Shown one piece after another: positions 1,005 through 49,532 of a DNA stretch of 64,000 bases. Each line of letters starts with the position of its first letter. Positions within the stretch are counted from its first letter, which is position 1. The stretch lies in NCBI GenBank assembly GCA_000830295.1, contig CP010425.1, positions 1,038,952-1,102,951 of the forward strand, read 5' to 3'. The DNA comes from an archaeon GW2011_AR15. GTDB taxonomy: Archaea; Nanobdellota; Nanobdellia; Woesearchaeales; GW2011-AR15. The notes under the pieces were generated by a model. That model did no database searches. It saw nothing but the letters and a program-made list of their open reading frames with translations, and had not been told where the DNA came from. A program made the translations under genes and the position numbers.

Positions 1005-3932
1005 GATGAAACCGTGCATAGAGTAAGTAATGAGCTTTTAGTGACCGCATGCTGAACGCCTCGTGACCTTGGCGTGTACACACCGGTTCTATTAAACCTG
1101 TCTTTTACAGGAGCTCTATGATATCTCTTTTCGAGGCGGGCTTCAAGCTTAGATGCTTTCAGCTCTTATCCCTTAGCGCGTAGCTGCCCGGCCTGCCTTA
1201 TCAGACAACCGGTTGACCAGAGGCGCCGAACCTTTGTTCCTCTCGTACTAAAAGATCCTTCCTCTCAGATATCAAACAATTCCAGTAGATATTAAACAAA
1301 CTGTCTCACAACGTTCTGAACCCAGCTCACGATCCCTTTTAATGGGTGAACACCCCCACCCTTGGCTGCTTCTGCACAGCCAGGATAGGAAGAGCCGACA
1401 TCGATGTAGCAAGCCCCGCCGTCGATATGAGCTCTTAGGCGGGACAACTCTGTTATCCCCGGAGTAACTTTTTTGTCATTCCTGACCCCCATCAAGGAGG
1501 TTCAAGAGTTCGCTAGACCACACTTTCGTGGTTGGATTTCGTAGATTGGGAAATCCAATCAGGCTGGCTTTTGCACTTGCACTCTACACCGGATTTCTGA
1601 CCCAGTTGAGCCAACCATAGGGCCCTGTTGATATCTTTTCAACAGGGTGCCACCCCAGCCAAACTGTCCACCAATTGCTGTCCTCTTTCAAGTAAGCAGC
1701 GTAAGTTCTGGAGGATGGTATTTCAACGGCGTCTACACGCAATCTAGCGATCACGCTTTAGCAACTCCCATCTATTCTACACACCAAAACTCACGTCACA
1801 ACAACAGGCTACAGTAAAGTTTCGCGGGGTCTTCACTTCCCACTGGAATACTCTGGCCTTTGCACCAGACAGAGTGTTCGGAGGATGCTAATTGGGGACA
1901 GCGGAGATCTCGTTGCACCACTCATGCGGGCCGTCAATTAAACGGCAAGGCATTTCGCTACCTTAAGAGAGTTATAGTTACTCCCGCCGTTTGCCAGATC
2001 TTAGCTCCCTTGAAAGAGAGTTTGAATTACTGGTACTGGGCAGGTGTCACGTTCTATTCACATCTTTTCAGACTTGCAGAACGTTAAGTTTTTGTTAAAC
2101 AGTCGGACCTCCCTTGTCATTGCACCCTGCAATCGCCTTCAAAAGAAGACCACCGCAGGGACCCCTTAAACCGAAGCTACGGGGCTAGGTTGCCGAATTC
2201 CCTCAATTACCTTAATCCTTCACACCTTAGGCTTCTCACCTAGGGGCACCTGTGCTGGTTCTTGGTACGGATATCTAAAGTTTTTCTTTTTTCCCTTTTC
2301 ACGGTCTCCAGGCATGAACCAAATACCCCATACGGGATACCATTCTAACCTTAATCAGGTTCTCATCATTACGATACTCCTCTGATTTTCTGTTATTAGC
2401 AGATAAGATGATATCTGTTGATCTAGCCGGAAGAGTCGGGAATAAAGCTTGCGTTGCCGCACATAAATAGACAATACAGGATTATTAACCTGTTTCCCTT
2501 TCCCATTACTCCTATTAGGAGATTGGTTAGGACCGATTACCCCTTGACTGATTTGCATTGTCAAGGAACCCTTGCCCTTTCGGTGGCACTGATTCTCACA
2601 GTGCTCAGTTCCTACTACCGCCAGGATTCTCTATTCAAGTCAGTCCACAAATCCTTCAGGAAATGCTTCTGCCTGACCAGAATGCCTGCCTACCACTGCC
2701 TTTTCAGGCGTCCACAGTATCGGTGACCGATTTAGCCCCGTCCATTTTCAAGGCCATCAACCTTGACAAGTAAGCTGTTACGCACTTATTATAGGGTGGC
2801 TGCTTCTAAGCCAACCTCCTTGCTGTCTTAGGCTGAAGACACCCTTCACCCTTTAGCACTTAATCGGCACTTAAGGACCTTAACTGTAGTTTGGGTTGTT
2901 CCCCTCTCGGTAATCAAGTTTACCCCAAGATTACCCGTTTCCTGACGTCTACGATGCAATAAAATTCGGAGTTGGACAAAGAACCGAGTCCTTTCGGGCC
3001 CTAAATTCTAAATCCGTTTCTCTACCTTCATTGCAATCTCGGTCAAGGCTTGACTACGGCCAATTTTGGCAGGAACCTGCTATCACCGGGTTCGATTGGC
3101 TTTTCACCCCTAGCCCAAGATCAGAGGAACGCTTGTTCACAGAACCCCTTCAGGCCTCCACCCCTTTTTACGGGGGCTTCACCTTGTCCTGGGTTAGATC
3201 ACCCGGTTTCAGATCGTGCCCATATGACTTAAAGGCATTATTTATACCTTTCGCCTTGCAGGCTGCGCGATTTTGCTTTCGCTGCGGGTCCTTCCTTTTA
3301 AGAATTGCCCTTGCCATATTGACACACTCCCTGGCTCGTTATTCGAAACGAACGATACAACTCCGTAGAGCCGTATCTCACTATCACTGTTAGGTTTCAG
3401 GTACTTTTAACCCCCTGTTATGGGTACTTTTCAACTTTCCCTCGCGGTACTCGTACGCTATCGGACTCATATTGTATTTAAGGTTGGGAGTTGATGCCTC
3501 CCGGATTCTCAGCTAATTTCCAATAGCTGATACTCTGGATACTGCTAAAATCCCCTTTCATTTCCCCTACGGGACTATCACCCTCTGCGGTCCAACTTTC
3601 CAGAAGTATTTGGGTCACAAAAAAGGATAAAAAGCAGTCCGAACACGTCATCTACTTTACATTACTGCAAAGTATCAGTTTGCCTTGTGCTGCTTTCACT
3701 CGCCGTTACTTACAGCATCTCGTTTGATTTCTTTTCCTGCAGGTACTAAGACGCTTCAATTCCCTGCGTCTCGCTATCCTTACGGATCTATAGTGAAGTC
3801 ACATTCAGGAACCCCAGGATCAGAGGCTGCATGCGCCTACCCTGGGCATTTCGTAGCTTGCCACGCCCTTCATCACCACTATGAGCCTAGTCATCCACCT
3901 AACAGCTCGAACACTCTATGCACGGTTTCATC
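1005..3932 (-). other. pre-23S processing helix: perfect 20-bp inverted repeat bracketing the 23S rRNA
   Basis: 1005-1024 (gatgaaaccgtgcatagagt) is the exact reverse complement of 3913-3932 (actctatgcacggtttcatc). This is the typical archaeal rRNA processing-stem arrangement. Confidence 0.8.
1025..3912 (-). rRNA. rrl: 23S ribosomal RNA (ends approximate)
   Basis: The reverse complement carries the sarcin-ricin loop (AGTACGAGAGGAAC, about 1236-1250) and the GCTGAAAGCATCTAAGC region (about 1147-1165). The length of about 2.9 kb between the processing-stem arms is normal, so there is no large intron. Confidence 0.9.
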
Positions 3933-4293: not shown

Positions 4294-5986
<1,693 letters not shown>

Positions 5987-7621: not shown

Positions 7622-7688
7622 TGCCTCGGCCGATATCCTCATTGCTCATTCGGAAACCTGCCAGGCAATAAACTGCCTCGGCCGGGAT
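7622..7688 (-). repeat. 67-nt exact repeat, copy 1: tRNA-Glu 3' end plus a conserved 45-nt trailer plus a second copy of the acceptor 3' strand
   Basis: The segment is identical to 39766-39832. TGCCTCGGCCG occurs twice within each copy. Confidence 0.9.
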
Positions 7689-7764
7689 TCGAACCCGGGT
7701 CAAAGCCTTTCTCCAATTGGATTGCGAGAGGGCTTTATGATTGGCCGGACTACACTACCGAGGC
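7674..7764 (-). tRNA. tRNA-Glu(CUC) with an intron of about 16 nt
   Basis: The reverse complement reads GCCTCGG TA GTGTAGTCCGGCCAATCAT A AAGCC CTCTCGC[AATCCAATTGGAGAAA]GGCTT TGAC CCGGG TTCGAAT CCCGG CCGAGGC A. Confidence 0.8.
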
Positions 7765-7773
7765 TTGTTTGAG

Positions 7774-7860
7774 TGGGTCCAGGGGGATTCGAACCCCCGA
7801 CATCTCGCTTTCTTCCAAAGTTAAGAGGCGAGCGCTCTGACCAGGCTGAGCTATGAACCC
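7774..7860 (-). tRNA. tRNA-Lys(CUU) with a short intron of about 12 nt
   Basis: The reverse complement reads GGGTTCA TA GCTC AGCCTGGTCA GAGC G CTCGC CTCTTAA[CTTTGGAAGAAA]GCGAG ATGTC GGGGG TTCGAAT CCCCC TGGACCC A. Confidence 0.78.
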
Positions 7861-13936: not shown

Positions 13937-14650
13937 TTATTCTGGTTTGCTCTCTTTATTCTCGGAAGATTTTTCCTTTTTTTCAGTCTTTGGCTTTGAT
14001 TCCTTGAAATCTTTCTTAAGCATAACCTCCTTTATATCCGGGATAAGTTCAGTCACTCTTTTCTTTACTGCATCAAGGACTTCCTTTGGGAACTTTTCCT
14101 CGCCGATAAGGAGAGTATTTTCTTTTAGCTCAAGTTCAGCATCTTTTATATTAAGCTCGTTCCTGAAAACTGCCCTTGCTTTCTCAAGGGGCGATTCAAC
14201 TACCCTGGTTAATTTTGCCTCATATCTCAGGGTGCGGCCTGCCAGCGGGTGGTTGAAGTCTACTATAACCCTCCCACCTGAGACTGACCTGACTGTCCCG
14301 AAACTGTTGTCAATATTTACTTCAAGGCCCGGGAAAGGCTGTATCTCCTGCTTCCTGAATATCTTCATAGGCATCAGCTTAAGGAGTTTTGCGTTCTTTT
14401 TTCCGAATGCTTTCTCAGGCTCCAGTGTAACTTTAACAGTGGCGGGAACTTTGCTTTCCATTATCTTTTCTTCCATTCCCTTAAGAATGTGCTCTTCACC
14501 GAGACAAACTACAACCGGCCCGAAGACAGAATTTTCTCTTGCCAGATTATTGTCTTTGGCAGTCTTTTCATCTGTAGTGTCAAAAAGAGTGCCGTCTTCA
14601 AGCCATCCTGTATATTCAATCTCCACAAAATCATGCTTTTTTAATGACAT
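13937..14650 (-). CDS. FKBP-type peptidyl-prolyl cis-trans isomerase (long archaeal/SlyD-like type)
   Basis: DFVEIEYTGWLEDGTLFDTT and VDFNHPLAGRTLRYEAKL match the family. The C-terminal tail is lysine/glutamate-rich. Confidence 0.85.
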   Translation of the reverse strand: MSLKKHDFVEIEYTGWLEDGTLFDTTDEKTAKDNNLARENSVFGPVVVCLGEEHILKGMEEKIMESKVPATVKVTLEPEKAFGKKNAKLLKLMPMKIFRKQEIQPFPGLEVNIDNSFGTVRSVSGGRVIVDFNHPLAGRTLRYEAKLTRVVESPLEKARAVFRNELNIKDAELELKENTLLIGEEKFPKEVLDAVKKRVTELIPDIKEVMLKKDFKESKPKTEKKEKSSENKESKPE

Positions 14651-14754
14651 TGTTTTTTTAGATTAAAGGCATGTTTAAAAAGCTTTCTGAGAATGAACAC
14701 AAGTTTAGAAAATTTGAGATTCTGTCTAATTCAAAATAAGAATATTTATATATT

Positions 14755-14769
14755 GTGTATGCATTACAC
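14755..14769 (+). promoter_or_regulatory. candidate NrtR-type operator 1 (GTGT-N7-ACAC), directly 3' of a TTTATATA box
   Basis: GTGTATGCATTACAC is followed by TAAG and lies 7 nt before the ATG of the Nudix-wHTH gene. It shares the GTGT-N7-ACACTAAG pattern with 16661-16679. Confidence 0.5.
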
Positions 14770-14775
14770 TAAGAG

Positions 14776-15456
14776 ATGGAAAAATTAAGAGGCCAGATGC
14801 AGGTAGCTGTTGACGCAGTTGTATTTACAGTGGAAAATGATGTTCTAAAGATACTTCTTATAGAGAGAAGAAACCAGCCGTTCCAGGGGAGATTTGCCCT
14901 TCCCGGTGGATTTGTGAACCCAGATGAGGAATTTGAGCAGGCTGTAAAAAGAGAGCTTTTTGAGGAAACCGGCGTGAAAGACATATTTGTAAAGCAGATA
15001 GGTGCATATGGCAAAGTCAGCAGGGATCCCAGAGGAAGGATAATTTCAATAGCCTTTCTTGCACTGATAAGCCATGACCAGAACCTAAAAGCCGCAACAG
15101 ACGCAGCGAAAGTTAAATGGGCCCCGTTAAATGATCTGCCTCCGCTTGCATTTGACCACAGGCAGATAATAAGCGACTCTCTTGAAGTCCTAAAGTTCGA
15201 AATACAAACCACAAATATCGCAAGAGAGATACTTCCTGAAGAATTTACATTAAGCAATCTCCAGTCACTGTATGAGAATATCCTCCAAAGAAAGCTTGAC
15301 AAGAGGAATTTCAGGAAAAAAATAAGGGAGCTTGAACTGGTAAAAGAAACCGGAAAGCAATTTATGGAGGGAGCACACAGGCCTGCAATGCTATATGAAT
15401 TTAGGGATAAGGAATATGAAAATTTAAAGGAAAGGATGCATGTTCTGCTAAGCTGA
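14776..15456 (+). CDS. nrtR: NrtR-like protein: Nudix (ADP-ribose pyrophosphatase-like) domain fused to a C-terminal winged-helix domain
   Basis: The Nudix box is intact (GGFVNPDEEFEQAVKRELFEETGV), followed by LAFDHRQII and then a tail of about 90 aa (TLSNLQSLYENILQRKLDKRNFRKKI...GAHRPAMLYEF). This is the layout of Nudix-related transcriptional regulators. Genomic context is NAD salvage. Confidence 0.72.
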   Translation: MEKLRGQMQVAVDAVVFTVENDVLKILLIERRNQPFQGRFALPGGFVNPDEEFEQAVKRELFEETGVKDIFVKQIGAYGKVSRDPRGRIISIAFLALISHDQNLKAATDAAKVKWAPLNDLPPLAFDHRQIISDSLEVLKFEIQTTNIAREILPEEFTLSNLQSLYENILQRKLDKRNFRKKIRELELVKETGKQFMEGAHRPAMLYEFRDKEYENLKERMHVLLS

Positions 15457-15927
15457 TTTGGTTAATGGATGATGGTCGTAATACCTATACATGCTATTAA
15501 CTTCCGGATGCCTTTGTTTTGAACCATCATACACAATATAGGTCCCTATTAGTTTTGCCCCATTCTTGGACAGAGCCTCTTTTATGCCGGTCCTTGTCCT
15601 GCCACTCCAGAGGCTGTCATCAAGGAAGAAATATCCTTCCCCTTCTGCTATATATCCGGCTAAATCCTCTATATCATTTCCTGTCCTGATACCCCCTGTT
15701 ACAACAAGAAGCCTGTTCTTTGTTTTTCTGGTTGTTAAAACATAATCTGAAAAAACTTCCCCAAATCTTCCTGACACAATAATTCCTGCATTTTCAGGGA
15801 CTGCTGAATATAGGCAGTTAAAAATATCAAAATTTCTCCCTATCTCTGCATCAAGGTTTTCATAAAATCTCTTCCCTCCCTTATGTTCCTGGAGCATTCC
15901 AACAATCAATTCTGTGAGTCTGTTCAT
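15448..15927 (-). CDS. phosphoribosyltransferase-domain protein (type I PRT fold, unknown substrate)
   Basis: A PRPP-binding-loop-like motif (YFFLDDSLWSGRTRTGIKEAL) sits near the C-terminal third. The rest of the protein is unrecognised. Confidence 0.55.
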   Translation of the reverse strand: MNRLTELIVGMLQEHKGGKRFYENLDAEIGRNFDIFNCLYSAVPENAGIIVSGRFGEVFSDYVLTTRKTKNRLLVVTGGIRTGNDIEDLAGYIAEGEGYFFLDDSLWSGRTRTGIKEALSKNGAKLIGTYIVYDGSKQRHPEVNSMYRYYDHHPLTKSA

Positions 15928-15930
15928 TTT

Positions 15931-16596
15931 TTAGTTTTGCATAGTTTTTTCAAGAGCAAAATAAAACTGATGCGCGAATAGATCAGGACACATTCTGCTC
16001 AGTTTTTTTGCAAAAGGAGGATTAATATCTTTAACAATCCACGCCCTTCTGTATTCTTCAGCGACTGGTTGGTATCCTGCCGCAGCGAACATCTTTTTCC
16101 ATTCCTTTGTTGTGTGCATGGATACATGACCTTTGTGAAACTCTTCAAAATCATAAAAGTTGCCTGAATGCAGGGCTTTATCAACCCTGGCTGCTATGCT
16201 CCGCGGGTTTGGGACAGTGATAAGAAGCCTTCCATCATCTTTTAACAGGAACTCTATAGTTCTTAAAGCTTCTTCCGGGTGTTTAAGATGCTCCAGGATT
16301 TCGGAAGCAATAACAGTATCATAAACCCCTATATTATCCTCTCTCTTTATTTTTGTGATATCCGCGTGAATGATTCTCTGGAATCCCCCGGGTGTTTCCT
16401 CGCATGCATAAATAGAAATATCCAAACCAACTTTATTCGGGACTGCTGCATCAACAGACACAGGATATTTGCCGCAACCTATCTCAAGCAGACTCTCTCC
16501 CCTGGCATAATTCGCAATAAATCTTTTTCTTGATGGAGAGGGCTTCCAGTCCTCATAATCATTGTAATGCAAATTTGCCGCAATTATACTATTCAT
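15931..16596 (-). CDS. class I SAM-dependent methyltransferase
   Basis: Motif I is LLEIGCGKYP. The post-I/II region is DTVIASEILEHLKHPEEALRTIEFLLKDDGRLLITVPN. Confidence 0.8.
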   Translation of the reverse strand: MNSIIAANLHYNDYEDWKPSPSRKRFIANYARGESLLEIGCGKYPVSVDAAVPNKVGLDISIYACEETPGGFQRIIHADITKIKREDNIGVYDTVIASEILEHLKHPEEALRTIEFLLKDDGRLLITVPNPRSIAARVDKALHSGNFYDFEEFHKGHVSMHTTKEWKKMFAAAGYQPVAEEYRRAWIVKDINPPFAKKLSRMCPDLFAHQFYFALEKTMQN

Positions 16597-16660
16597 CAGT
16601 GGTAGTTTATTGAAATTATATATAAATATATACTAAAATCAAAACATTTATATATAATAA

Positions 16661-16675
16661 GTGTTTACTATACAC
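16661..16675 (+). promoter_or_regulatory. candidate NrtR-type operator 2 (GTGT-N7-ACAC), directly 3' of a TTTATATATA box
   Basis: GTGTTTACTATACAC is followed by TAAG. It lies in the divergent intergenic region upstream of the pncB operon. Confidence 0.5.
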
Positions 16676-16762
16676 TAAGTAAGACAATCAAGCTCAATCC
16701 TGAAAACAGGGTTGGGCTTTTTTTGGATGAAAATAAGTGTAAAAAATACAAGAAGTGAAAAT

Positions 16763-17086
16763 ATGGATGAAAACCTTGGGATGAAGATAGAAAGGCTCAG
16801 CAGGGAACTGGAAAGGGCACAACATGAAAGGTCATTGTGCAACCATGTTTTCGGAGAGCCTAACAGAATTTTAACAGAGTATAAAGTGCCTTACATTGTT
16901 GGGTATATACCTTGCGGTTCTGATCCAATCCCTGATTTAAAATACGAAACAAAAACAAGAATCGGATGGGAAAGGATGTGCCTGAATGATTGCGGATACA
17001 GAGAATACACCGAAGCACTGGAAGTGACACAGGAAAAGAGATACAAACCTGATTTCACAAAACCGATAGTAAGAACGGGAGGCTAA
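16763..17086 (+). CDS. hypothetical Cys-containing protein, first gene of the NAD operon
   Basis: The stop is 1 nt before the pncB ATG. The start was chosen at MDENLG, though upstream alternatives at 16712 and 16727 remain possible. I recognise no family. Confidence 0.5.
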   Translation: MDENLGMKIERLSRELERAQHERSLCNHVFGEPNRILTEYKVPYIVGYIPCGSDPIPDLKYETKTRIGWERMCLNDCGYREYTEALEVTQEKRYKPDFTKPIVRTGG

Positions 17087-17087
17087 A

Positions 17088-18467
17088 ATGACAAACAAAA
17101 CCATGCTTACAGATGAATACCAGCTCACAATGATGGCATCATACCTTGATAATAATATTGATGATAAGGCAACATTTGACATGTTTATCAGAGGGCTTCC
17201 TGAAGACTGGGGATACTTTATTGCAAACGGCATAGAAGATGCAATTGATTATGCAACAAGCATCAAATTTAGTAAAGACGATATTGATTTCCTCAGAAGC
17301 CAGGGAAAATACAGTGAAGATTTCCTTGATTTCCTCAGGGGTTTTAGGTTTAATGGTGAGATATATTCTGTTAAAGAGGGAGAAATTGTCTTTCCAAACC
17401 AGCCGGTATTAAGAGTAACCGGCAGCAGAACAGAAGCCCAGTTTCTTGAAACTGCCATACTTAATATAATTAATTTCCAGACAATGGTTGCATCAAAGGC
17501 AAACAGGGTTGTGAATGCTGCCGGAGAATCAACAGTGCTTGATTTTGGCCTGAGAAGAGCCCAGGGTGAGGACGCGGGGATGGAGGGCGCAAGGGCAGCT
17601 TATATTGGCGGTGCTTCAGGCACCAGCAATGTAAAAGCAGGAAAAGAATATGGGATTCCAACTGGCGGGACTCAGGCCCACAGCTATGTAATGAGCTTTG
17701 ATGATGAGGCGGATGCTTTCAGGGCATATGCAAAGACTTTTCCTGACAGGTCTGTCTTCCTTATTGATACATACAATACTCTTGAAGGTGCAGAAAAAGC
17801 GGCAATTGTAGCCAAGGAAATGGAAAAGCAGGGGCACAGGCTTGTCGGAGTCAGGCTGGATTCAGGAGACCTTGAAATGCTTTCAAAAGGCGTCAGAGAC
17901 ATATTCAACAGCCAAGGTCTTGGATATGTGAAAATATATGCAAGCAATGACCTGAATGAATACAAGATTGAAGACCTGGTGAGGAATGGGGCAAAAATAG
18001 ATGCTTTCGGTGTTGGGACAGAGATGATTACAGCAAAGCCGGTCTCCGCAATATCCGGAGTCTACAAGCTTGTTGAAGATACAGCAGGCCCAAAGATGAA
18101 ATTTTCACCGGGAAAGGAAAGCAACCCAGGAAAGAAACAGATTTATAGGATAAGTGATGAGAAAGGGACCTTCCTGTATGATGTAATGGCTCTTGAATCT
18201 GAAAAAATAGAAGGCAGGTCATTGCTTGAAAAAGTTGTTGAGAACGGATACAGAATAAGCCAGAGAAGAGACCTGAAAGAGATAAGGGAATATGCTCTTG
18301 ATTCAGTAAGCAGGCTTCCTGACAGCCTGAAGCAGGTCAGAGTTGCAGACAAGTATGAGGTAAGAAAATCAGAAGGCCTGACTAGCCTTATAGATGAGCT
18401 TGGGGAAAAATATCTCCAAAGCCTTCCTTTTTACAGCGTAGTTCATCCAATTTCAATAAATCAATAA
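17088..18467 (+). CDS. pncB: nicotinate phosphoribosyltransferase
   Basis: The N-terminus MLTDEYQLTMMASY is characteristic. GLRRAQG, GTSNV and RLDSGDL follow the family order. Confidence 0.9.
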   Translation: MTNKTMLTDEYQLTMMASYLDNNIDDKATFDMFIRGLPEDWGYFIANGIEDAIDYATSIKFSKDDIDFLRSQGKYSEDFLDFLRGFRFNGEIYSVKEGEIVFPNQPVLRVTGSRTEAQFLETAILNIINFQTMVASKANRVVNAAGESTVLDFGLRRAQGEDAGMEGARAAYIGGASGTSNVKAGKEYGIPTGGTQAHSYVMSFDDEADAFRAYAKTFPDRSVFLIDTYNTLEGAEKAAIVAKEMEKQGHRLVGVRLDSGDLEMLSKGVRDIFNSQGLGYVKIYASNDLNEYKIEDLVRNGAKIDAFGVGTEMITAKPVSAISGVYKLVEDTAGPKMKFSPGKESNPGKKQIYRISDEKGTFLYDVMALESEKIEGRSLLEKVVENGYRISQRRDLKEIREYALDSVSRLPDSLKQVRVADKYEVRKSEGLTSLIDELGEKYLQSLPFYSVVHPISINQ

Positions 18468-18497
18468 GTGTAAAAAATACAATAATAGGTGAAGCAA

Positions 18498-19013
18498 ATG
18501 AAAACAACATTGAACAAAGTTGTTAATGATAAAGGATTCAGGAAATATACCACACATAAAGCAGAAGCCGGGGATATAATCACTTCTCCTGAGTTTGCTT
18601 TTGGGGAATACGGTGTTTTCTACGATGATGATAAGCACCTGAGGCTTGACAAGTATAATATCAGTGTAGACGGGCACACAAGAACTCTGGAGGTGCAGTA
18701 TTCAAACCCTGAGATACCGAGAGGGAAACCTGATGAACTGATAACAATAGATATTGCCGCGTATGACCCTTCTCGGGGAACGGCAAAATTCCTCGTTGAA
18801 GAGGCTTATCTTGGCGGCGGTTCAGGCCCTTGCAGCCATGATCCTTATCCTGATGGATGGAATGTAAAGGCAAGAAGGCTTTCAGATGATGCGTCATATG
18901 ATCCAAAAGGCAAACTAATAGATTTCTACCAGAGCGGTTCTTTCACAAACAAGGTCAGGGAAGTTACTGTAGTCGGGAAGATGGAGAAAATAATCGAGTG
19001 GAGAAAAAAATAG
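18498..19013 (+). CDS. hypothetical protein (171 aa) embedded between pncB and pncA
   Basis: The ORF is clean and globular. I recognise no family. The ATG at 18498 is preferred over the tracked GTG at 18489. Confidence 0.58.
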   Translation: MKTTLNKVVNDKGFRKYTTHKAEAGDIITSPEFAFGEYGVFYDDDKHLRLDKYNISVDGHTRTLEVQYSNPEIPRGKPDELITIDIAAYDPSRGTAKFLVEEAYLGGGSGPCSHDPYPDGWNVKARRLSDDASYDPKGKLIDFYQSGSFTNKVREVTVVGKMEKIIEWRKK

Positions 19014-19029: not shown

Positions 19030-19650
19030 ATGAAAACAATAGCATGGAATGTAGATACACAATACGACTTTATGCGTGCTGACGGGAAACTATATGTGCA
19101 GGATGCAGAAAAGATTGAGGGAAACCTTGAGAAACTGACAAACCTTTTCAGAAAAAAAGGGACAGCAATAGTAAATACAGGGGACTGGCATAATGAGCAT
19201 ACTGCTGAAATTTCAGATACACCTGATTTTGTCAATACCTTTCCGGAGCACTGCATGCAGAATACACATGGAGCGGATTATGTCGGCGCAACCAAGCCAG
19301 CAAATGCGCTCTATGTCGACTGGCAGGATGAAAAGGCTGACCTTGATGCAATTGCAGGAGCAAAAGAGATTGTAATATACAAGGACATGTTCGATGTCTT
19401 TGCAGGAAACCCGCACACTGACAAAATTGTTGATGCACTGGGCCCGGACAGGGTAATCGTATATGGTGTTGCAACGAATGTCTGCGTCAATTATGCTGTA
19501 AGAGGGCATCTGGAAAGAGGGCTTGAAGTCTATGTCGTAGAGGATGCAATAAAAGAGCTCCCAAATATACCTTCACCAGTTGATGGCTGGGTAAAGGCAG
19601 GAGCCAGACTGATCAGAACAGAAGATGCAGTTAATTACATCGGAGGTTAA
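19030..19650 (+). CDS. pncA: nicotinamidase/pyrazinamidase (isochorismatase family)
   Basis: VDTQYDF (catalytic Asp), a DWH metal site and VIVYGVATNVCV (catalytic Cys) are present. Confidence 0.85.
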   Translation: MKTIAWNVDTQYDFMRADGKLYVQDAEKIEGNLEKLTNLFRKKGTAIVNTGDWHNEHTAEISDTPDFVNTFPEHCMQNTHGADYVGATKPANALYVDWQDEKADLDAIAGAKEIVIYKDMFDVFAGNPHTDKIVDALGPDRVIVYGVATNVCVNYAVRGHLERGLEVYVVEDAIKELPNIPSPVDGWVKAGARLIRTEDAVNYIGG

Positions 19651-19651
19651 A

Positions 19652-20584
19652 ATGCTCGAACAAAAAATACTGCTGGCACAAATGGATCCTGAAACTGTAA
19701 GCGATGAGATAGGCGACTTTGTCATACAACAGGTAAAGGAGGGGGATTATATAGGATGTGTTATAGGGCTATCAGGAGGCATTGATTCCACAACCACAGC
19801 TACACTGATAAAAAGAGCGTTTGACAGGCATAATCTCAGAAGAAAACGGAACAAGCTTGAGATTGTGGGGTATATCATGCCTTCAGATATCAATAACCCT
19901 GAAGATGCGAGAGACGGCATAAGGGTCGCAGAAAACCTTGGGGTAAGATATGAGGTTCTGGATATAAACGGCGTTGTAGAAGCATACAGGACAACAAATC
20001 CCGAAGCATTTGATGTAGAATACCACAAAGGAAACCTTATGTCTAGGATTAGGGGGAACATCCTTTCCACAAAAGCAGCTACAGAAAGGAAACTTGTTGC
20101 CGGCACTGGAAACTGGGATGAAGATTTCGGCCTGGGATACTATACTTTATTCGGCGACGGGGCTGTACACATGAGCCCAATCGGCAATCTTCCAAAGAGG
20201 CTTGTAAGAGAGATGGCAAAATATCTTGGCATTGATTCCTATTTTGTCAACAGGGAGCCTACTGCAGGGCTTGAGCCCGGCCAGACAGACTTTAAGGATC
20301 TGGGCTACAGCTATGACACGGCTGAATTAATTATAAGAGGCCTGGAGCTTGGCATTGACCCACGGGACTTGGCTGATTATTCCCAGGTAAAAAAACAGAT
20401 TGAACCAGAAATCAGCTATAAGGGAGCCAAATTCACTTCTGCATATGAGATTATAGAAGACATAATGCAGAGACACATTGTTGCAGAGGCTAAGGCAGGT
20501 ATTGTCAGCCCTCCTGCAGCGCCTGTATCCCTATACTACGGCAAAGAGATCTGGAGGACAATAAAAAAGGTAGAGAGGGAATAA
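19652..20584 (+). CDS. nadE: NH3-dependent NAD+ synthetase
   Basis: The PP-loop GLSGGIDSTTTA is present. GGAGG lies 5 nt upstream of the ATG at 19652, inside the end of pncA. Confidence 0.9.
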   Translation: MLEQKILLAQMDPETVSDEIGDFVIQQVKEGDYIGCVIGLSGGIDSTTTATLIKRAFDRHNLRRKRNKLEIVGYIMPSDINNPEDARDGIRVAENLGVRYEVLDINGVVEAYRTTNPEAFDVEYHKGNLMSRIRGNILSTKAATERKLVAGTGNWDEDFGLGYYTLFGDGAVHMSPIGNLPKRLVREMAKYLGIDSYFVNREPTAGLEPGQTDFKDLGYSYDTAELIIRGLELGIDPRDLADYSQVKKQIEPEISYKGAKFTSAYEIIEDIMQRHIVAEAKAGIVSPPAAPVSLYYGKEIWRTIKKVERE

Positions 20585-20585
20585 A

Positions 20586-21035
20586 ATGACAAAACCAACA
20601 CAGCTCTATGTAGCTACAACCCTCATAATAAAGCATGAGGATAAGTACGTGCTTATAGAAAGAAAAAACCCGCCGTACGGCTTTGCCCTTCCCGGAGGCT
20701 TTCTCGAGCCAAACCTGACTGGGGTAAAAAATGGAGAAAAAGAAGCCAAAGAAGAGACGAATCTAGAGATCCTGATTCATAACCCCTATACTCCAATAGT
20801 CTTCTCATCTCCTGATAGAGATCCCAGAAGCAGAGTAGTTGATCTTATTTACATAGCTACAGGAACGGGCAAGCTGGCTGCCGGAGATGATGCAAAGGCA
20901 GTCCATGAATTCTGGCCTGATGAGATAGAGAAAATGTTTGGCAAGAACAAATTTGCCTTTGACCATGAAGACATACTAAAACACTATTTTTCAAGGAGGA
21001 TGTTCTATGACTATTCCGGCAACGATAGAAGGTAG
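20586..21035 (+). CDS. Nudix hydrolase (divergent Nudix box)
   Basis: LPGGFLEPNLTGVKNGEKEAKEETNLEI keeps the EKEAKEET core but not the full GX5EX7REUXEEXGU spacing. Confidence 0.75.
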   Translation: MTKPTQLYVATTLIIKHEDKYVLIERKNPPYGFALPGGFLEPNLTGVKNGEKEAKEETNLEILIHNPYTPIVFSSPDRDPRSRVVDLIYIATGTGKLAAGDDAKAVHEFWPDEIEKMFGKNKFAFDHEDILKHYFSRRMFYDYSGNDRR

Positions 21036-21651
21036 AGTAGGGACAATCGCGAGGTTTAAGCCTCTCCATATGGGGGCCCAGCTTATGCTTGAAACCATAT
21101 GCTCACAGGCAGGTGAAGTCATAATCGGAATCGGAAGCTCAAATAAGTATGATGTAAGAAATCCTTTTACTGCTGAGGAAACAGAGGAGATGATACGCAG
21201 GGCTCTCTCAGGATATGATAACTATTCTGTTGTCCACGTCCCTGATTTTGCCCACCTCGGCCCTGAATATCAGGATGGCCAGGCATGGAGGAAGAATGTT
21301 CTCAGGTTGTTTGGAGAGCTGGATTATTTCATAGTGGAGAACGGCTATGTAAAAAAACTGCTTGAAGAGGATTATAAAATTGCAAGACCTTCCAGCCTTA
21401 TTCCTAAAGAGAGCCAGATAATGGTCAGCGGGACAATGGTCAGGGTTGAAATGGCAAAAAATGGCGACTGGAAAAGTCTTGTTTCAAAAGAAGTAGCGGA
21501 TTATCTGACTGAGCCCGGCAAAGCTGGAAGCTATGAAAATCTTGTTGACAGATTTAGAAAAGAATTCGGGCTTGAAACTCTGGCCAGCATGGCAACTGAG
21601 GGGATCTATGCCAGGGATGCTGAAACAGAATACAGGAGGACACTGGTGTAA
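21007..21651 (+). CDS. nadM: archaeal-type nicotinamide-nucleotide adenylyltransferase homolog (HxGA instead of HxGH)
   Basis: GTIARFKPLHMGAQ, IGSSNKYDVRNPFTAEE and SGTMVRVEMAKNGDWKSLV parallel the NadM motifs GRFQPFHxGH, IGSAQ..NPFT and SGTEVR...DW. It overlaps the upstream gene by 29 nt. Confidence 0.75.
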   Translation: MTIPATIEGRVGTIARFKPLHMGAQLMLETICSQAGEVIIGIGSSNKYDVRNPFTAEETEEMIRRALSGYDNYSVVHVPDFAHLGPEYQDGQAWRKNVLRLFGELDYFIVENGYVKKLLEEDYKIARPSSLIPKESQIMVSGTMVRVEMAKNGDWKSLVSKEVADYLTEPGKAGSYENLVDRFRKEFGLETLASMATEGIYARDAETEYRRTLV

Positions 21652-26946: not shown

Positions 26947-27513
26947 ATGCATGAAAAGATGGATTTTGATAATGAAAAAAAACAGGCCCTGAATAAGCTG
27001 GACAAATCAAAAAAAGGGGAAATTGATGTGCAGATTCTTTCTTTGATAAAAAAAGTAAATAAAAATCCTGATTACTACACAACAAGCTCCTGTGCAGGCA
27101 GGGTCATGATCCTGAAGGAATCAGAAAGAAAAGACGGGGTTGAATGGGTCTTCTCAAGTCATGAAGCTGTAAAATACAGTGAAATAGGGAGACATCTGGC
27201 GGATGTTCCTGAAGAAACTTTGTGGTTCAGAATGGAGCCTCCGATATTCCATGTATGCTGCAGGGATATTAATGCTGCTGAAACCCTGATTAAGATAGCC
27301 AATAACTCGGGGTTCAGAAGGTCAGGGATAATCGGCATAAAGAAGAGGATAATTGTTGAGATTCTTTTTCCGGAAAAGATGGATGCGCCTATATCTGAGA
27401 AAGGCAGCATGATCGTTGAAGAAGCTTATCTTAAAAGATTGATTTATTATGCTAATTCCAAACTGAAGAAAACAAGAAAAAAATTAAAAATTTTTGAGGA
27501 ATTATTTCCTTAA
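26947..27513 (+). CDS. taw3: tRNA wyosine-derivative methyltransferase Taw3/TYW3
   Basis: DYYTTSSCAGRVMI matches the TYW3 SSCSGR signature, and the length is family-typical. Confidence 0.78.
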   Translation: MHEKMDFDNEKKQALNKLDKSKKGEIDVQILSLIKKVNKNPDYYTTSSCAGRVMILKESERKDGVEWVFSSHEAVKYSEIGRHLADVPEETLWFRMEPPIFHVCCRDINAAETLIKIANNSGFRRSGIIGIKKRIIVEILFPEKMDAPISEKGSMIVEEAYLKRLIYYANSKLKKTRKKLKIFEELFP

Positions 27514-28863
27514 TATTGCTACTACCAGGATACCGAATACGACCAGTGCCAGTAATAGCAATCCTCCAAGCAGTATCAGATACTGTGGTGATTCAAAGAA
27601 AGATTGCTTTTCTTCACCATATATGACTCCTGTTGAAGGCCCGACCTCATCTACAACAACTACCGTATCGCTGTCCTCCTCTTCTTCCTCATCAGAAGGT
27701 GTTGCTCCGCCATTGCAGCCCTGTACTGTAAGCACAACGCTCTCCAGGTCTGTCTGCTCGTCATTATTGTAGTTTGCTTCTATTGCAATGACATACTCAC
27801 CGGCAGCTGTGCTTGAGGGTATAGATAGGTCAAAGGTTCTTGTTTCAGTATCCCCTTCGTCAATCTCTATATTGTAGACTTCTTCACGGATGCCCAGTTT
27901 TGATGATTCAACAAAGATAGATGCCTTATTCTGGTCATCTGTTCCTGTATTCTCTATTGTAACCCTAAGAGTTGTATGGGTCTCGCCGCATGCAAGGCTT
28001 GCCGGGCTAAGTGATGCTGAGGTTACTGTGATTTCATCATCTTCAAGCTGCACTTCAAGAGTGAATTCAAGGTAATCCCCGTGGAGGGCCCCGTTTTCGT
28101 CCTCTCCTGTTACCCATAGCTCAAAGTCGTAGTCGTCCTCATCAAGGTCACTAGGGATATCAAAGGATAGTGTCTCTGTAGCTGTATCATCTGCCTTAAG
28201 ATCACCAAAATCTACAGTGTCATCATCAAATTCAGAATCTGCAGGCTCAAGTTCTGCCTCGATATCCTGTATTTCACAGTCTCCGTAGTCATCAGGATCA
28301 TCGCAATCCCCATTATTGTCAAACCTGTTCTCTATGTCTATATCAAGGACAATTTCATCATTTCTGCCGACTTCATCATAGCTGTCTCCGTCATCCAGGC
28401 TATTGTCGTCACCATCGATGGTTATCCTTGGATCTCCGAACCTCAGAAGGTTTTCAGCCTGCATTGTGAAATCAGAAATTGTCAGCAATGTGGTTGTTGA
28501 GTTTTTCACAACAATGTTACCTATATCAAAAGCTGTTGCCTGTCCCTGGCTGTCAACTGCATCCAGGTCAAGAGGAACATATCCATTGATTGTCAGCGTT
28601 GCTGACTCGTTTGAGTCCAGTGTTGTATCTGACAATGTGTAATTTACACTATATTTAGAATCTACACCTGAAGAGGTGACGTTGATACCAGAAACTGTCT
28701 CGTTTCCGGTGTTAGTTATTGTAATGCTTGCTGAATCTGTCTCGCCTCTCTCCTGGCTGCTGCTTCCCAGCGCCACTGTTGAGCTTGAGGCTTCAATTGC
28801 AGCAAAAGCGCTTGCTATTGTAATTGCAAACATCAGCAAAAACAATATTATCAGTTTTTTCAT
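27502..28863 (-). CDS. secreted, highly acidic cell-surface protein with a C-terminal membrane anchor
   Basis: The N-terminal signal peptide is MKKLIILFLLMFAITIASAFA. Aspartate/glutamate-rich repeats follow. The C-terminus has EEEEED and then a hydrophobic helix ending in RK. Confidence 0.7.
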   Translation of the reverse strand: MKKLIILFLLMFAITIASAFAAIEASSSTVALGSSSQERGETDSASITITNTGNETVSGINVTSSGVDSKYSVNYTLSDTTLDSNESATLTINGYVPLDLDAVDSQGQATAFDIGNIVVKNSTTTLLTISDFTMQAENLLRFGDPRITIDGDDNSLDDGDSYDEVGRNDEIVLDIDIENRFDNNGDCDDPDDYGDCEIQDIEAELEPADSEFDDDTVDFGDLKADDTATETLSFDIPSDLDEDDYDFELWVTGEDENGALHGDYLEFTLEVQLEDDEITVTSASLSPASLACGETHTTLRVTIENTGTDDQNKASIFVESSKLGIREEVYNIEIDEGDTETRTFDLSIPSSTAAGEYVIAIEANYNNDEQTDLESVVLTVQGCNGGATPSDEEEEEDSDTVVVVDEVGPSTGVIYGEEKQSFFESPQYLILLGGLLLLALVVFGILVVAILRK

Positions 28864-35237: not shown

Positions 35238-36364
35238 TTGTCAATATAGGAAGCACTTCCAAAAAGTATGCTCTTTATTCTGATAAGGAACTAATAAGAA
35301 TTACCCTAAACATAGACCTGGATTGCGGTTATAAGGCGAATGGCAAGGTCTCAAAATTAAAAGCCGGCAGAAAAGAATACAATGATTCAGCAAAATACGT
35401 TCTTAATCTACTGATGAAAAAAGAGCTGATAGCATCAAAAAAAGAAATTGAGAAAATTGCTGTGCGTGTTGTTTCCCCTGGGAATTTCTTCCAGAAAAAC
35501 AGGCCAATAAATAGAGAATACATCACAAAGCTGGAGGAATCAAGGAGCATGGCTCCGCTCCATATTGAACCTGTGCTTGGAGAGCTGAAGAAAATATTAA
35601 AAGAATTCAGGGGAGCCAGGATAATCGCTGTTTCAGACAGCGCTTTCCATTATACTCTGGGGTCTGCTGCGAAATACTATGCAATCCCAAAAAAATACTC
35701 TGATTTATTCGGCATCTACAGGTATGGATACCATGGGATTTCAGCAAGCTCTGTCATCAGGCATCTGAAATCATCTTCCAAACTGCCGGAGAGGATTATA
35801 ATCTGCCACCTGGGAGGAGGCTGCAGCATAACTGCAGTAAAGAACGGAAAAAGCATAGATACCTCAATGGGCTTCAGCCCCCTGGAAGGCCTCTACATGG
35901 CATCCAGATCCGGGGACATTGACCCGTCTATTGTCTTCTATCTCCTGAAAAAATTTTCTGCTGAAAACCTCTTAAAAATGCTGAATAGTGAATCTGGACT
36001 GCTTGGTGTGTCAGGAAAGAGCTCAAGCGTAAAAGAGCTTATTGATTTAAAGGACAGCAGATCAAAATTAGCTATGGACATGTATGCATACAAGATAAAG
36101 AAGTATATAGGCTCGTATTATGCCGCGCTCAACGGGTTGGATGTGCTTGTATTTACAGGGGCAGTCGGCTCTGGTTCTGTGAAGATGAGAAGGAAAATCT
36201 GCCAGGATTTGGCCGGGCTTGGCATTAGTCTTGATACAGCAAAAAATTCAAGGAATAAAAAAGGCTTTATCCATGCTTCTGGCTCCAAGGCAAAAATATT
36301 CATCATGGAGACAGATGAAATTGAAGAGATGTACAGGATAATAACCCAATATCCAAAAGTTTAA
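35219..36364 (+). CDS. ackA: acetate kinase
   Basis: LIVNIGSTSKKY corresponds to the N-terminal ASKHA phosphate-1 loop. RYGYHGIS, HLGGGCSI and SRSGDIDP are also present. It overlaps the end of xfp by 19 nt. Confidence 0.88.
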   Translation: MERKTLIVNIGSTSKKYALYSDKELIRITLNIDLDCGYKANGKVSKLKAGRKEYNDSAKYVLNLLMKKELIASKKEIEKIAVRVVSPGNFFQKNRPINREYITKLEESRSMAPLHIEPVLGELKKILKEFRGARIIAVSDSAFHYTLGSAAKYYAIPKKYSDLFGIYRYGYHGISASSVIRHLKSSSKLPERIIICHLGGGCSITAVKNGKSIDTSMGFSPLEGLYMASRSGDIDPSIVFYLLKKFSAENLLKMLNSESGLLGVSGKSSSVKELIDLKDSRSKLAMDMYAYKIKKYIGSYYAALNGLDVLVFTGAVGSGSVKMRRKICQDLAGLGISLDTAKNSRNKKGFIHASGSKAKIFIMETDEIEEMYRIITQYPKV

Positions 36365-36383
36365 AAATCCGACATAGTTCACA

Positions 36384-36470
36384 TTCTCAGAGGGAAATCA
36401 GGGTGCGACTCCCTGGCTGTGCCGCAACCGTAAAGCCGGAAAACCAAATTCCTTCGTGCAAGGGTGAGAA
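36384..36470 (+). promoter_or_regulatory. cobalamin-riboswitch-like leader (short form without peripheral extension)
   Basis: AGAGGGAAATCAGGGTGCGACTCCCTGGCTGTGCCGCAACCGTAAAGCCGGAAAACC parallels the btuB core AGGGAATCCAGTGCGAATCTGGAGCTGACGCGCAGCGGTAA and the B12 box AAGCCCGAAGACC. A candidate closing helix TTCTCA (36384-36389) / TGAGAA (36465-36470) overlaps the GGTGA Shine-Dalgarno-like element 6 nt before the ATG. Confidence 0.5.
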
Positions 36471-36472
36471 AA

Positions 36473-36811
36473 ATGGATAAGAGAAAAGCAGTTCTTAGCA
36501 AAAATGTTGAGATAATTGAGGGAAGCTATCATCCCATCAAAGACTGGGTCATGGACCCGAAAGGATATTTTCTGATAAGGGTTAACAGGAAAAAGAGGCT
36601 GCTGGAGCTGGGATACTGCAGAAAAGATAATGTTATTGAGGTCATGATTCTGGGAAAGACACCGCAGGAAGTCTATTTCAATGCCTGCGAGAAAGGCCTG
36701 CTCTCAAGGCTGGATCATGCTGCGTATCTTGGAAAAGAGCTTGAGAAAGCATATCTTGCAATGAAATACAATCTTGACTATGTGCAGGATGAGGAGCTTA
36801 AGATTGGCTAG
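36473..36811 (+). CDS. DUF4346-like protein
   Basis: GYFLIRV...LDHAAYLGKELEKAYLAMKYNLDYVQDE matches my recollection of the DUF4346 signature. That domain is usually fused to pterin-binding or MtrA-like proteins. Confidence 0.6.
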   Translation: MDKRKAVLSKNVEIIEGSYHPIKDWVMDPKGYFLIRVNRKKRLLELGYCRKDNVIEVMILGKTPQEVYFNACEKGLLSRLDHAAYLGKELEKAYLAMKYNLDYVQDEELKIG

Positions 36812-49409: not shown

Positions 49410-49532
49410 CCCTCCTTAGCTCAGCGGCTAGAGCGTTCGGCTGTAGATGCTTATCTGACATGGTGCTAACCAAAGGATGAAAATAAGCCAGCCGTGACCG
49501 AAAGGTCCCCGGTTCGAATCTGGGAGGAGGGA
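49410..49532 (+). tRNA. tRNA-Tyr(GUA) with an intron of about 50 nt
   Basis: CCCTCCT TA GCTC AGCGGCTA GAGC G TTCGG CTGTAGA[about 50 nt]CCGAA AGGTC CCCGG TTCGAAT CTGGG AGGAGGG A. The C1:G72 pair is typical of archaeal tRNA-Tyr. Confidence 0.78.

Follow-up and report, generated by a model that had tools for sequence, protein, structure and literature searches.

How bacteria control NAD metabolism at the level of transcription has been mapped well, with NadR, NiaR, NrtR and NadQ as the regulators. Our search of the literature returned nothing comparable for the control of NAD transcription in archaea, and NrtR is treated there as a bacterial regulator. Archaeal repressors that occlude promoters (MDR1, LrpA, Phr and those of the TrmB type) have operators that lie just downstream of the BRE/TATA elements or overlap them and cover the transcription start, and they are expected to block TBP/TFB binding or the recruitment of RNA polymerase; we know of none among them with a Nudix sensor domain or a role in NAD metabolism. 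The published operator consensus of the NrtR family is a 21-bp palindrome with the core GT-N7-AC (PMC2330246). In AraR of Bacteroides thetaiotaomicron (BtAraR), Lys179, Arg180, Asn181 and Lys184 define the GTGT motif (PMC4666351), and NrtR of Mycobacterium smegmatis is an auto-repressor of de novo NAD synthesis that is reportedly modulated by acetylation (PMC6800001).

Here we describe a locus in a 64-kb stretch of DNA, the whole of which is called the window below, that encodes an NrtR-type protein and an NAD operon (Table 1). We consider it probable (about 0.8) that an NrtR-family regulator works in this Woesearchaeota-type (DPANN) archaeon and controls nrtR and the NAD operon as proposed below.

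Table 1. Features of the nrtR and NAD operon region, numbered from the first position of the window.
Feature	Position	Strand	Remarks
TATA box, nrtR promoter (TTTATATA)	14745..14752	+	ends 23 nt before the ATG
Operator O-nrtR (GTGTATGCATTACAC)	14755..14769	.	about -21 to -7 relative to the predicted start; TAAG, the right arm of the palindrome, extends to 14773
nrtR	14776..15456	+	226 aa; Nudix domain and NrtR-type winged helix, intact Nudix box
TATA box, divergent methyltransferase / PRTase-like gene pair (TTTATATA)	16619..16626	-	22 nt between its end and the ATG at 16596
TATA box, NAD salvage operon (TTTATATA)	16647..16654	+	preceded by a BRE-like A-rich stretch
Operator O1 (GTGTTTACTATACAC)	16661..16675	.	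TAAG to 16679; predicted start about 16677-16679
Leader hairpin and T7	16690..16724	+	13 pairs; T7 at 16718-16724; terminator-like
O2 element (ATAA-GTGTAAAAAATACAA-GAA)	16733..16754	+	core starts 12 nt past the T-run and stops 11 nt short of the ATG at 16763
orf107, first cistron	16763..17086	+	107 aa; no family match (Pfam, NCBIfam)
pncB, nicotinate phosphoribosyltransferase	17088..18467	+	NCBIfam NF006696, 539 bits against a cutoff of 503
O3 element (ATAA-GTGTAAAAAATACAA-TAA)	18464..18485	+	pncB stops at the TAA directly 5' of GTGT
orf171	18498..19013	+	171 aa; no family match (Pfam, NCBIfam); conserved in relatives
pncA (isochorismatase-type nicotinamidase), nadE, stand-alone Nudix, NadM-type NMN adenylyltransferase homologue	19030..21651	+	Pfam, NCBIfam

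The NrtR protein and its host

Complete archaeal genes for 16S rRNA (4383-5849) and 23S rRNA (1015-3922) lie in the same window as nrtR, and the host is a tiny, Woesearchaeota-like DPANN archaeon from groundwater. The preliminary description of this DNA had credited the nrtR reading frame with an intact Nudix box and the C-terminal extension of NrtR, and both are borne out: the box can be read from the translation (G45-x5-E51-x7-R59-E60-L61-x-E63-E64-x-G66-V67), and the C-terminal domain matches Pfam NrtR_WHD (PF21906) with 86.4 bits against a cutoff of 27, next to a NUDIX match of 78.5 bits against 21.1. The best NCBIfam match is NF050029, an ADPR-responsive repressor (E = 7.9e-44, residues 10-218), and NadM Nudix domains are matched as well. 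With 150 bits the protein stays below the equivalog cutoff of 400 bits of NF050029, and judged by its sequence it is a divergent member of the family, not an equivalog of that seed group. Sequence matches in the PDB that cover both domains are AraR (4.8e-46) and the NrtR of Shewanella (soNrtR; 3.5e-35).

A winged helix at the C-terminus had been anticipated, and the AF2 model (pLDDT 90.5) contains helices at 148-151, 159-170 and 176-185 followed by strands at 189-196 and 204-209 that form a beta-hairpin wing. Foldseek aligns the model over its full length with BtAraR (TM 0.81) and with DNA-bound Shewanella NrtR (3GZ6; TM 0.77-0.79), and its Nudix-domain fold also matches 3GZ8. The four residues that define the GTGT motif in BtAraR align with K176, R177, N178 and K181, and the stretch D175-R180 is invariant across 45 homologues; in that alignment all positions of the Nudix box are invariant or nearly so, with G45, E51, R59, L61 and E64 invariant and E60 and E63 kept in at least 90%. 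With a Nudix-fold N-terminus that is homologous to ADP-ribose pyrophosphatases, a winged HTH at the C-terminus and the GTGT-reading residues, the protein has the traits of its family, and we conclude from family, fold and DNA-reading residues, as supported by sequence and model, that it is a genuine NrtR-family transcription factor.

In the tree, the window protein falls inside a clade of 12 relatives with 100/100 support (labelled archaeal by source names and synteny), and the remaining Woesearchaeota sequences are found near this clade. Therefore, nrtR is established in the lineage and not a contamination. Among the relatives, L081-L089 and L175-L177 are metagenomic, and we labelled them archaeal by source names in some cases and by synteny, not by rRNA. 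The runs that contain the locus are all DNA runs from groundwater or soil, and it was found in no RNA run (share 0.00).

Linkage of nrtR to NAD metabolism genes on the chromosome, another trait of the family, is found here too: the promoter of the pncB operon is about 1.2 kb from nrtR in the window and directly adjacent to it in relatives. The operon runs orf107, pncB, orf171, pncA, nadE, Nudix, nadM and onward. Its pncA-nadE-Nudix-nadM synteny is kept in L083, L084, L087, L089, L176 and L131, and tblastn finds orf171 with 85% identity in L081 and L131.

Operators at two promoters

Two 15-nt sites of the form GTGT-N7-ACAC followed by TAAG, each just 3' of a TATA-type box, were the core of the preliminary description. 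Both are present (O-nrtR and O1), and both follow a perfect TTTATATA box, with gaps of 2 nt and 6 nt, respectively; O-nrtR ends 6 nt before the nrtR ATG. These are the only perfect copies in the 64-kb window, where 0.18 would be expected and where two are reached in 1 of 100 shuffles. Each lies close to its promoter, between the TATA box and the predicted transcription start, and the motif was not found at other, NAD-unrelated promoters of the window. Near-matches at 5273 (in the 16S rRNA gene), 14425 (in an FKBP-type gene), 25641, 28635 (in ORF 27502-28863), 48145 and 53557 were dismissed as chance, being one base off the core and without the combination of TATA box and gene start.

Among the perfect TATA boxes of the window that lie at most 120 nt upstream of a gene start, 10 of 16 end 21-26 nt before the ATG, and leaderless starts are therefore the norm here. 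The predicted start at O1 follows from the same spacing of 21-26 nt between TATA box and start. The divergent methyltransferase / PRTase-like gene pair is leaderless as well and has no operator between box and ATG.

The trailing TAAG, given in the preliminary description as following the 15-nt sites, is nothing additional but the right arm of the 21-bp palindrome of the family, TTAGTGT-N7-ACACTAA. Perfect sites in the bacterial nrtR loci that we fetched (81, many of them just upstream of nrtR) yield cTTAGTGT-N7-ACACTAAg, and 35 archaeal promoter sites yield identical arms. The operator sequence is thus that of the bacterial consensus, DNA specificity appears to have been kept unchanged in the archaeal host, and the palindrome stands upstream of nrtR and of NAD genes as it does elsewhere in the family.

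About 20 archaeal loci repeat the order of TATA box, gap of 0-7 nt and operator, placed ahead of nrtR and ahead of pncB, nadA, QRPTase-like, NAPRTase-like and nadM-containing operons, which agrees with the expectation that the motif would be found upstream of NAD genes in relatives. Orthologous sites precede nrtR in L081, L083-L089, L175-L177, L001, L044, L048 and L065, and the 15-mer of O1 is identical at the orthologous place in L081. Relatives also share the (C)GAAA-N-TTTAWATA arrangement of the operon TATA box, and the promoter-proximal operators of L083, L084, L087 and L177 have a right arm ACAA. Nor is the motif common in AT-rich DNA: about 300 kb of archaeal DNA (the window and about 235 kb of related archaeal loci) contain 23 perfect sites, and 21 of these, as counted from the site lists, are at nrtR or NAD promoters or leaders. 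The interpretation that an NrtR-type regulator acts on archaeal promoters is therefore supported by fold, conserved residues and operator placement.

The leader of the NAD operon

A new element of this locus is the unusual leader of the NAD operon, with its covarying hairpin, T7 and sense-oriented operator-like element. It is about 85 nt long, and its hairpin, which folds with -19.8 kcal/mol (z = -5.45), is together with T7 the strongest terminator-like site in 19 kb. Hairpin and T-run are also found in L081, L085, L086, L175 and L001 (z -2.7 to -5.4), and five stem pairs show compensatory changes across five loci. A stable hairpin with oligo-T, as expected of an attenuator, thus lies between promoter and first cistron; RNA folding of the leader gave no evident alternative antiterminator fold.

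Several other explanations of the leader were discarded. The hairpin is not the terminator of an upstream gene, as it is kept where the gene upstream is divergent or different (window, L085, L086). There is no support for a leader peptide with its stop at the TAA before O2, as L081 lacks the in-frame ATG at 16727. A search of Rfam at a permissive threshold over 14650-18560 returned only a chance match to GcvB (E = 2.9), which rules out a known riboswitch, including the NAD+ riboswitch classes.

Downstream of the hairpin stands the 19-nt core ATAAGTGTAAAAAATACAA (16733-16751), which is common to O2 and O3; the distance from the T-run to the GTGTAAAAAATACAA core of O2 is conserved (10-12 nt). 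This fourth copy was missed in the preliminary description. The degenerate third site reported there, GTGTAAAAAATACAA at 18468-18482, is real but belongs to a distinct, sense-oriented class that is also present in the operon leader. Elements with GTGTAAAAAATACAA recur between cistrons, and orthologous copies of O3 are found in L081 (at 3197) and L131. Internal promoters can be set aside for O2 and O3, which have no TATA-like box at a spacing of 21-26 nt. A metagenome scan with the O2 20-mer AAGTGTAAAAAATACAAKAA returned 80 loci, only three of which (L131, L159 and L098) have NAD genes, the others having unrelated flanks; this A-rich 20-mer is too common by chance for such a scan, which gained us one relative.

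The leader module may be a second layer of control. It is possible, if not the reading that we favour, that O2 and O3 together with the hairpin and T7 act at the RNA level, as a translation, processing or stability signal or as the target of an RNA-binding factor, and that O-nrtR and O1 are the only operators. All 16 listed O2-type elements are sense-oriented with spacers that are A-rich and never T-rich, and two further cases on the reverse strand (L131, and L088 at 6242) likewise read GTGT...ACAA in the sense direction, where a degenerate palindromic DNA site would be expected in both orientations. Moreover, these elements lie 11-21 nt before start codons beside GGTGA/GGAGG ribosome-binding sites, often abut the preceding stop codon and have TAA as left flank instead of the palindromic TTA, and the hairpin covaries as RNA structure does. 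On the other hand, O2 and O3 retain the GTGT and ACA(A/C) arms at the exact N7 spacing, and the ACAA arm is one that promoter-proximal operators use too. The O2-type elements are also confined to NAD operons (both of the two in the window, and no others in the archaeal loci outside such operons), in the unrelated locus L098 the O2 20-mer is next to a perfect site that lies a short way upstream of an nrtR homologue, and the Rfam search offers no match for the leader/O2 region, all of which speaks against a role in RNA.

A more doubtful proposal is two-step control by a single repressor, in which promoter occlusion at O1 would be combined with a roadblock at O2 into a repressor-positioned attenuator. 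Bound to O2, NrtR would halt the archaeal RNA polymerase at a point where the active site of the enzyme is over the T-run, and through this roadblock a leaky oligo-T signal could come to terminate efficiently. Both blocks would be lifted together by ADP-ribose, and the sense-oriented O2-type copies between cistrons (O3 and others in relatives) might tune distal genes likewise or at the mRNA level. If true, this would be a mechanism not described for archaea.

Proposed regulation and alternatives

For the control of nrtR and the NAD operon by NrtR, in which repression, transcription start positions, effector and catalytic activity are predicted, we propose the following sequence of events. A dimer of NrtR would bind the 21-bp palindrome TTA-GTGT-N7-ACAC-TAA through K176, R177, N178 and K181 of the recognition helix. 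At O-nrtR, where the promoter is predicted to be leaderless and the ATG of nrtR to be the transcription start as well, the protein would abut or overlap the position of TBP/TFB and the region of RNA polymerase (by analogy with the AraR footprint of about 25 bp), and occupancy would result in negative autoregulation. At O1, which runs up to the predicted start, occupancy would block the recruitment of the polymerase or the opening of the promoter. During NAD consumption, the Nudix domain would take up ADP-ribose or a close NAD-derived nucleotide, the winged helices would thereby swing apart, the DNA would be released, and NAD salvage and synthesis would be turned on. Relief of DNA binding by ADP-ribose is what the family as a whole would suggest for this protein. 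Since the clade conserves an intact Nudix box, NrtR may also hydrolyse its own effector.

It seems improbable that NrtR binds these operators and senses a ligand other than ADP-ribose (NAD, NaAD, a sugar or a host-derived metabolite), or activates instead of repressing. Effectors have indeed diversified in the family, with L-arabinose for BtAraR (PMC4666351). NaAD and related dinucleotides also affected the binding of soNrtR in vitro, and since the closest solved homologue by sequence, AraR, is sugar-responsive, the effector is not readable from homology alone; yet all targets are NAD genes. An operator that follows the TATA box and covers the start would be expected of a repressor and not of an activator, and those of archaeal MDR1, LrpA and Phr are placed likewise. 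Finally, we consider it very improbable that the protein is mainly an ADP-ribose or nucleotide-sugar pyrophosphatase, with a minor or non-regulatory winged helix and with palindromes bound by another factor: an intact and conserved Nudix box is consistent with a protein that acts chiefly as an enzyme, and across the family catalytic activity goes along with an intact signature (NuhA versus Slr1690; PMC2330246), but the DNA-contact residues are invariant, the operator is what the aligned residues read in AraR, nearly every relative has a site at the promoter of nrtR itself, a separate stand-alone Nudix enzyme is already encoded in the operon, and catalysis and regulation are not mutually exclusive (PMC2330246).

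Implications

Control by NrtR would make this locus a testable NAD circuit in archaea, with a sensor-repressor, four defined DNA elements and a 12-gene target operon, in a group whose members are believed to rely on partners for many metabolites. It could illustrate how a regulator of bacterial type retains the same DNA specificity when its operator is repositioned to suit TATA/TFB-dependent leaderless promoters, and with the module of hairpin, T-run and O2 it may offer one of the few cases of archaeal control through a leader. The 21-bp palindrome could serve for the annotation of NAD regulons of DPANN genomes, and it can flag unknown genes that lie behind it as candidates for the NAD pathway: orf107, orf171, a DAO/Mqo-like FAD enzyme and a gene with a Cx3Cx2C motif (radical-SAM-like).

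Comparison with known systems

Bacterial NrtR (Shewanella oneidensis SO1979, PDB 3GZ5/3GZ6/3GZ8; Synechocystis Slr1690; Rodionov et al. 2008, PMC2330246) has the same architecture of Nudix domain and winged helix, a 21-bp palindrome with the core GT-N7-AC, targets in NAD salvage and synthesis, and linkage of nrtR to these targets. The archaeal promoters, however, depend on TBP/TFB and are mostly leaderless, and their operator lies between TATA box and start, whereas the bacterial one lies over the -35/-10 elements; sites are single here and 22-23-bp tandem pairs in many bacterial loci, and the Nudix box is intact here and perturbed in both characterised bacterial NrtR proteins. The leader hairpin, T-run and O2 are an addition relative to the bacterial systems. 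NrtR of M. smegmatis resembles our proposal in combining auto-repression with the control of NAD biosynthetic genes, although it is bacterial and has another target set. The best match in sequence and structure is AraR of B. thetaiotaomicron (BT0354; PDB 5BS6, 5DD4, 5DDG, 5DEQ; PMC4666351), whose recognition helix DKRNFRK, which reads GTGT half-sites, is identical in the window protein; AraR senses L-arabinose and controls sugar utilisation, whereas every target here is a gene of the NAD pathway. With the promoter-occluding repressors of archaea (MDR1, LrpA, Phr and the TrmB type), on the other hand, the system shares operator placement, while the protein families are different from NrtR.

The NrtR protein and its host

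On all the sequence, fold and operator criteria open to testing, the product of nrtR (ORF 14776-15456, 226 aa) belongs to the NrtR family. Pfam identifies both NUDIX (78.5 bits) and NrtR_WHD (PF21906, 86.4 bits, where the cutoff is 27). Among NCBIfam models the ADPR-responsive repressor fits best (7.9e-44), though the 150 bits scored lie far under the 400-bit equivalog cutoff. The protein has the full Nudix signature GX5EX7REUXEEXGU (G45...V67), with key residues invariant or nearly so among 45 homologues. The best matches in a PDB sequence search, Bacteroides AraR (4.8e-46) and Shewanella NrtR (3.5e-35), each span both domains. A C-terminal winged helix had been expected in the preliminary description, and the AlphaFold model, built from the 45-sequence alignment (mean pLDDT 90.5), predicts three helices and a beta-hairpin unit there, with full-length Foldseek matches to AraR (TM 0.81) and the NrtR-DNA complex 3GZ6 (TM 0.77-0.79). 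In the AraR-DNA structure, Lys179, Arg180, Asn181 and Lys184 of helix alpha6 "define the GTGT DNA sequence motif" (PMC4666351). Their aligned counterparts are K176, R177, N178 and K181, and D175-R180 is invariant across the 45 homologues. Model fold and aligned contacts together place a winged helix at the C-terminus and, as judged from the alignment, the residues that read GTGT in the protein.

The gene is resident in the archaeal lineage, and is neither a binning artefact nor a lone recent transfer, because the window also holds complete archaeal 23S and 16S rRNA genes, the closest homologues with a source name (50-77% identity) are annotated as Woesearchaeota or Nanoarchaeota, and a maximum-likelihood tree puts the protein, with 100/100 support, in a clade made up of 12 sequences from fetched relatives, called archaeal on source names and synteny. 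The remaining Woesearchaeota NrtR sequences fall into two or three groups nearby, joined by an unresolved backbone; archaeal NrtR could still have a single origin. The locus also occurs in groundwater and soil metagenome runs.

Operators at archaeal promoters

Perfect GTGT-N7-ACAC occurs in the 64-kb window only at the two operators, O-nrtR and O1 (Table); shuffled windows held a mean of 0.18 matches and reached two in 1 of 100 shuffles. The coordinates of the two 15-nt sites agree exactly with the preliminary description, and its trailing TAAG and preceding TATA boxes are confirmed. Allowing two mismatches over a 19-nt pattern recovered the degenerate site after pncB that it had reported (O3), together with a twin that it lacked (O2). 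No GTGT/ACAC arms were seen at window promoters unrelated to NAD.

Features of the window and of relatives' loci (L-numbers; positions within each locus)
Feature	Position or locus	Strand	Details
TATA box of nrtR	14745-14752		perfect TTTATATA; 2-nt gap to operator
O-nrtR, operator of nrtR	14755-14769		GTGTATGCATTACAC, then TAAG
TATA box of divergent methyltransferase / PRTase-like pair	16619-16626	minus	
TATA box of NAD operon	16647-16654		perfect TTTATATA; 6-nt gap to operator
O1, operator of NAD operon	16661-16675		GTGTTTACTATACAC, then TAAG
Leader hairpin	16690-16724		13 pairs and T7; strongest terminator-like site in 19 kb
O2 and O3, operator-like	16737; 18468		both ATAAGTGTAAAAAATACAA
Small first ORFs	window 16763-17086; L084:3206-3526; L175:4205-4507; L176:9056-9364; L085:4585-4848; L001:935-1246		
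Example TATA boxes	53108, 58116, 58791, 9769, 37259, 56314, 10138, 25230		
AdoCbl-II aptamer (Rfam)	36375-36451	+	40 bits; gathering score 36.5
Acetate kinase gene	35219-36364		
PterinBD-DUF4346 ORF	36473-36811		112 aa
Rfam tRNAs	7674-7860, 49410-49532		87-123 nt
Operator-preceded NAD genes			pncB operons
Operator-preceded nadA	L023, L044, L177		
Operator-preceded QRPTase-like or NAPRTase-like genes	L085, L001, L089		
Operator-preceded operon ending in nadM-nrtR	L034		
Operator before FAD oxidoreductase	L014:1547-3834; L023:3572-5919		
CPMKCTFC protein	L034:4360-5424		354 aa
Tandem TATA-operator units	L085:4449-4499		36 bp apart
O2 20-mer beside perfect site	L098:983-1046		GTGTCAAAATTACAC

Most NrtR groups use a 21-bp palindrome with the core GT-N7-AC (Rodionov et al. 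2008, PMC2330246). Of 71 fetched bacterial nrtR loci, roughly 32 carry GTGT-N7-ACAC no more than ~120 bp ahead of nrtR, often as pairs 22-23 bp apart, and 81 perfect bacterial sites extend to the consensus cTTA-GTGT-N7-ACAC-TAAg. Since the bacterial sites and 35 archaeal promoter-proximal sites extend into the same arms, TAAG is the right arm of the palindrome rather than a separate feature. Judged by these consensus sequences, the archaeal operator is the bacterial one.

Across about 20 fetched archaeal loci, the order nrtR, pncB, small ORF, pncA, nadE, Nudix, nadM, kinase is conserved, and a TATA box followed after 0-7 nt by an operator recurs before nrtR and before NAD genes. The end of the nrtR operator lies 1-8 nt upstream of the ATG in most of them and 26 nt in L088. 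The motif is uncommon elsewhere: among 23 perfect sites counted across some 300 kb of archaeal sequence, 21 fall at nrtR/NAD promoters or leaders, the other two inside unrelated genes.

Of 16 perfect TTTAWATA boxes upstream of window genes, 10 end 21-26 nt before the ATG. Most of the organism's promoters thus appear to yield leaderless mRNAs, with a start placeable ~23 nt after the box. The 23 nt from box to ATG of nrtR fit this spacing and put its operator at about -21 to -7; O1 would lie at about -16 to -2 relative to a predicted start at 16677-16679. Archaeal repressors with such operator placements block TBP/TFB binding or polymerase recruitment, and both predicted NrtR sites share the placement. 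Given that AraR covers 25 bp of DNA (PMC4666351), an NrtR dimer on the nrtR operator would reach both the TATA/TFB region and the DNA that melts. No operator lies between the TATA box and the ATG of the divergent methyltransferase / PRTase-like pair, and its promoter gave no sign of NrtR control.

Among more distant Woesearchaeota, two loci have an operator in front of a gene for a DAO/Mqo-like FAD oxidoreductase of about 470-490 aa. This enzyme is a candidate for the aspartate oxidase step of de novo NAD synthesis, as a non-orthologous replacement. The following gene is a putative NAD kinase from sequence motifs, with no Pfam match; in L023 a nadA under a separate operator stands alongside. 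The predicted operator-controlled operon ending in nadM-nrtR opens with a protein carrying a radical-SAM-like CPMKCTFC (Cx3Cx2C) motif and no Pfam match.

The leader of the NAD operon

Unlike most window genes, the NAD operon has a predicted leader of ~85 nt. The folding energy of its hairpin is -19.8 kcal/mol (z = -5.45); terminator-like sites as a whole are not enriched in the 19 kb (14 found, 18.3 expected). An equivalent hairpin and T-run occur in L081, L085, L086, L175 and L001 (z from -2.7 to -5.4), with a conserved stem base and compensatory changes in five upper pairs. O2 lies 12, 12, 12, 11 and 10 nt after the T-run in five loci, O1 to O2 measures 74-79 bp, and this spacing is kept although the first downstream gene varies. 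In other relatives, a second group (L084, L087, L176), O1 and O2 are 51-53 bp apart and a strong hairpin is lacking. In L085 two full TATA-operator units precede one hairpin, as if the promoter cassette had been duplicated.

One or two small ORFs (77-113 aa, no family) open the NAD operons of many relatives. Queried by tblastn with orf107, the window's own, they gave no detectable similarity; the first cistron looks positionally conserved and sequence-divergent.

The 16 O2-type elements (consensus A-TAA-GTGT-AAAAA-N-y-ACAA-TAA) are placed at non-overlapping NAD-operon junctions, 11-21 nt upstream of start codons. We favour reading them as putative secondary NrtR sites, because they retain operator arms and spacing and because in L098 the exact O2 20-mer stands beside a perfect site a short way ahead of an nrtR homologue (44% identity). 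L098 comes from an unrelated metagenomic contig with 46% GC; the flanks of L161 are similar. The strict sense orientation and A-rich spacer of the O2-type elements would also suit a role at the RNA level; an Rfam search of the leader/O2 region returned nothing. Scanning metagenomes with the O2 20-mer gave mostly chance matches.

Elsewhere in the window, Rfam finds an AdoCbl-II (cobalamin) riboswitch aptamer between the acetate kinase gene and the PterinBD-DUF4346 ORF, about 20 nt before the latter's start; riboswitches are rare in archaea. The long Rfam tRNAs, not reported by ARAGORN, are probably intron-containing archaeal tRNAs.

Comparison with bacterial NrtR systems

The literature searched treats NrtR as bacterial, and none of it pairs NrtR with DPANN archaea. 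The predicted archaeal NrtR regulon is testable, and naturally extends the rule that archaea use bacterial-type regulators. It differs from bacterial NrtR systems in its archaeal, largely leaderless promoter context, in its single operators, where the bacterial ones are often tandem, and in the conserved intact Nudix box of its regulator, while the leader module of hairpin, T-run and O2 is an archaeal addition.
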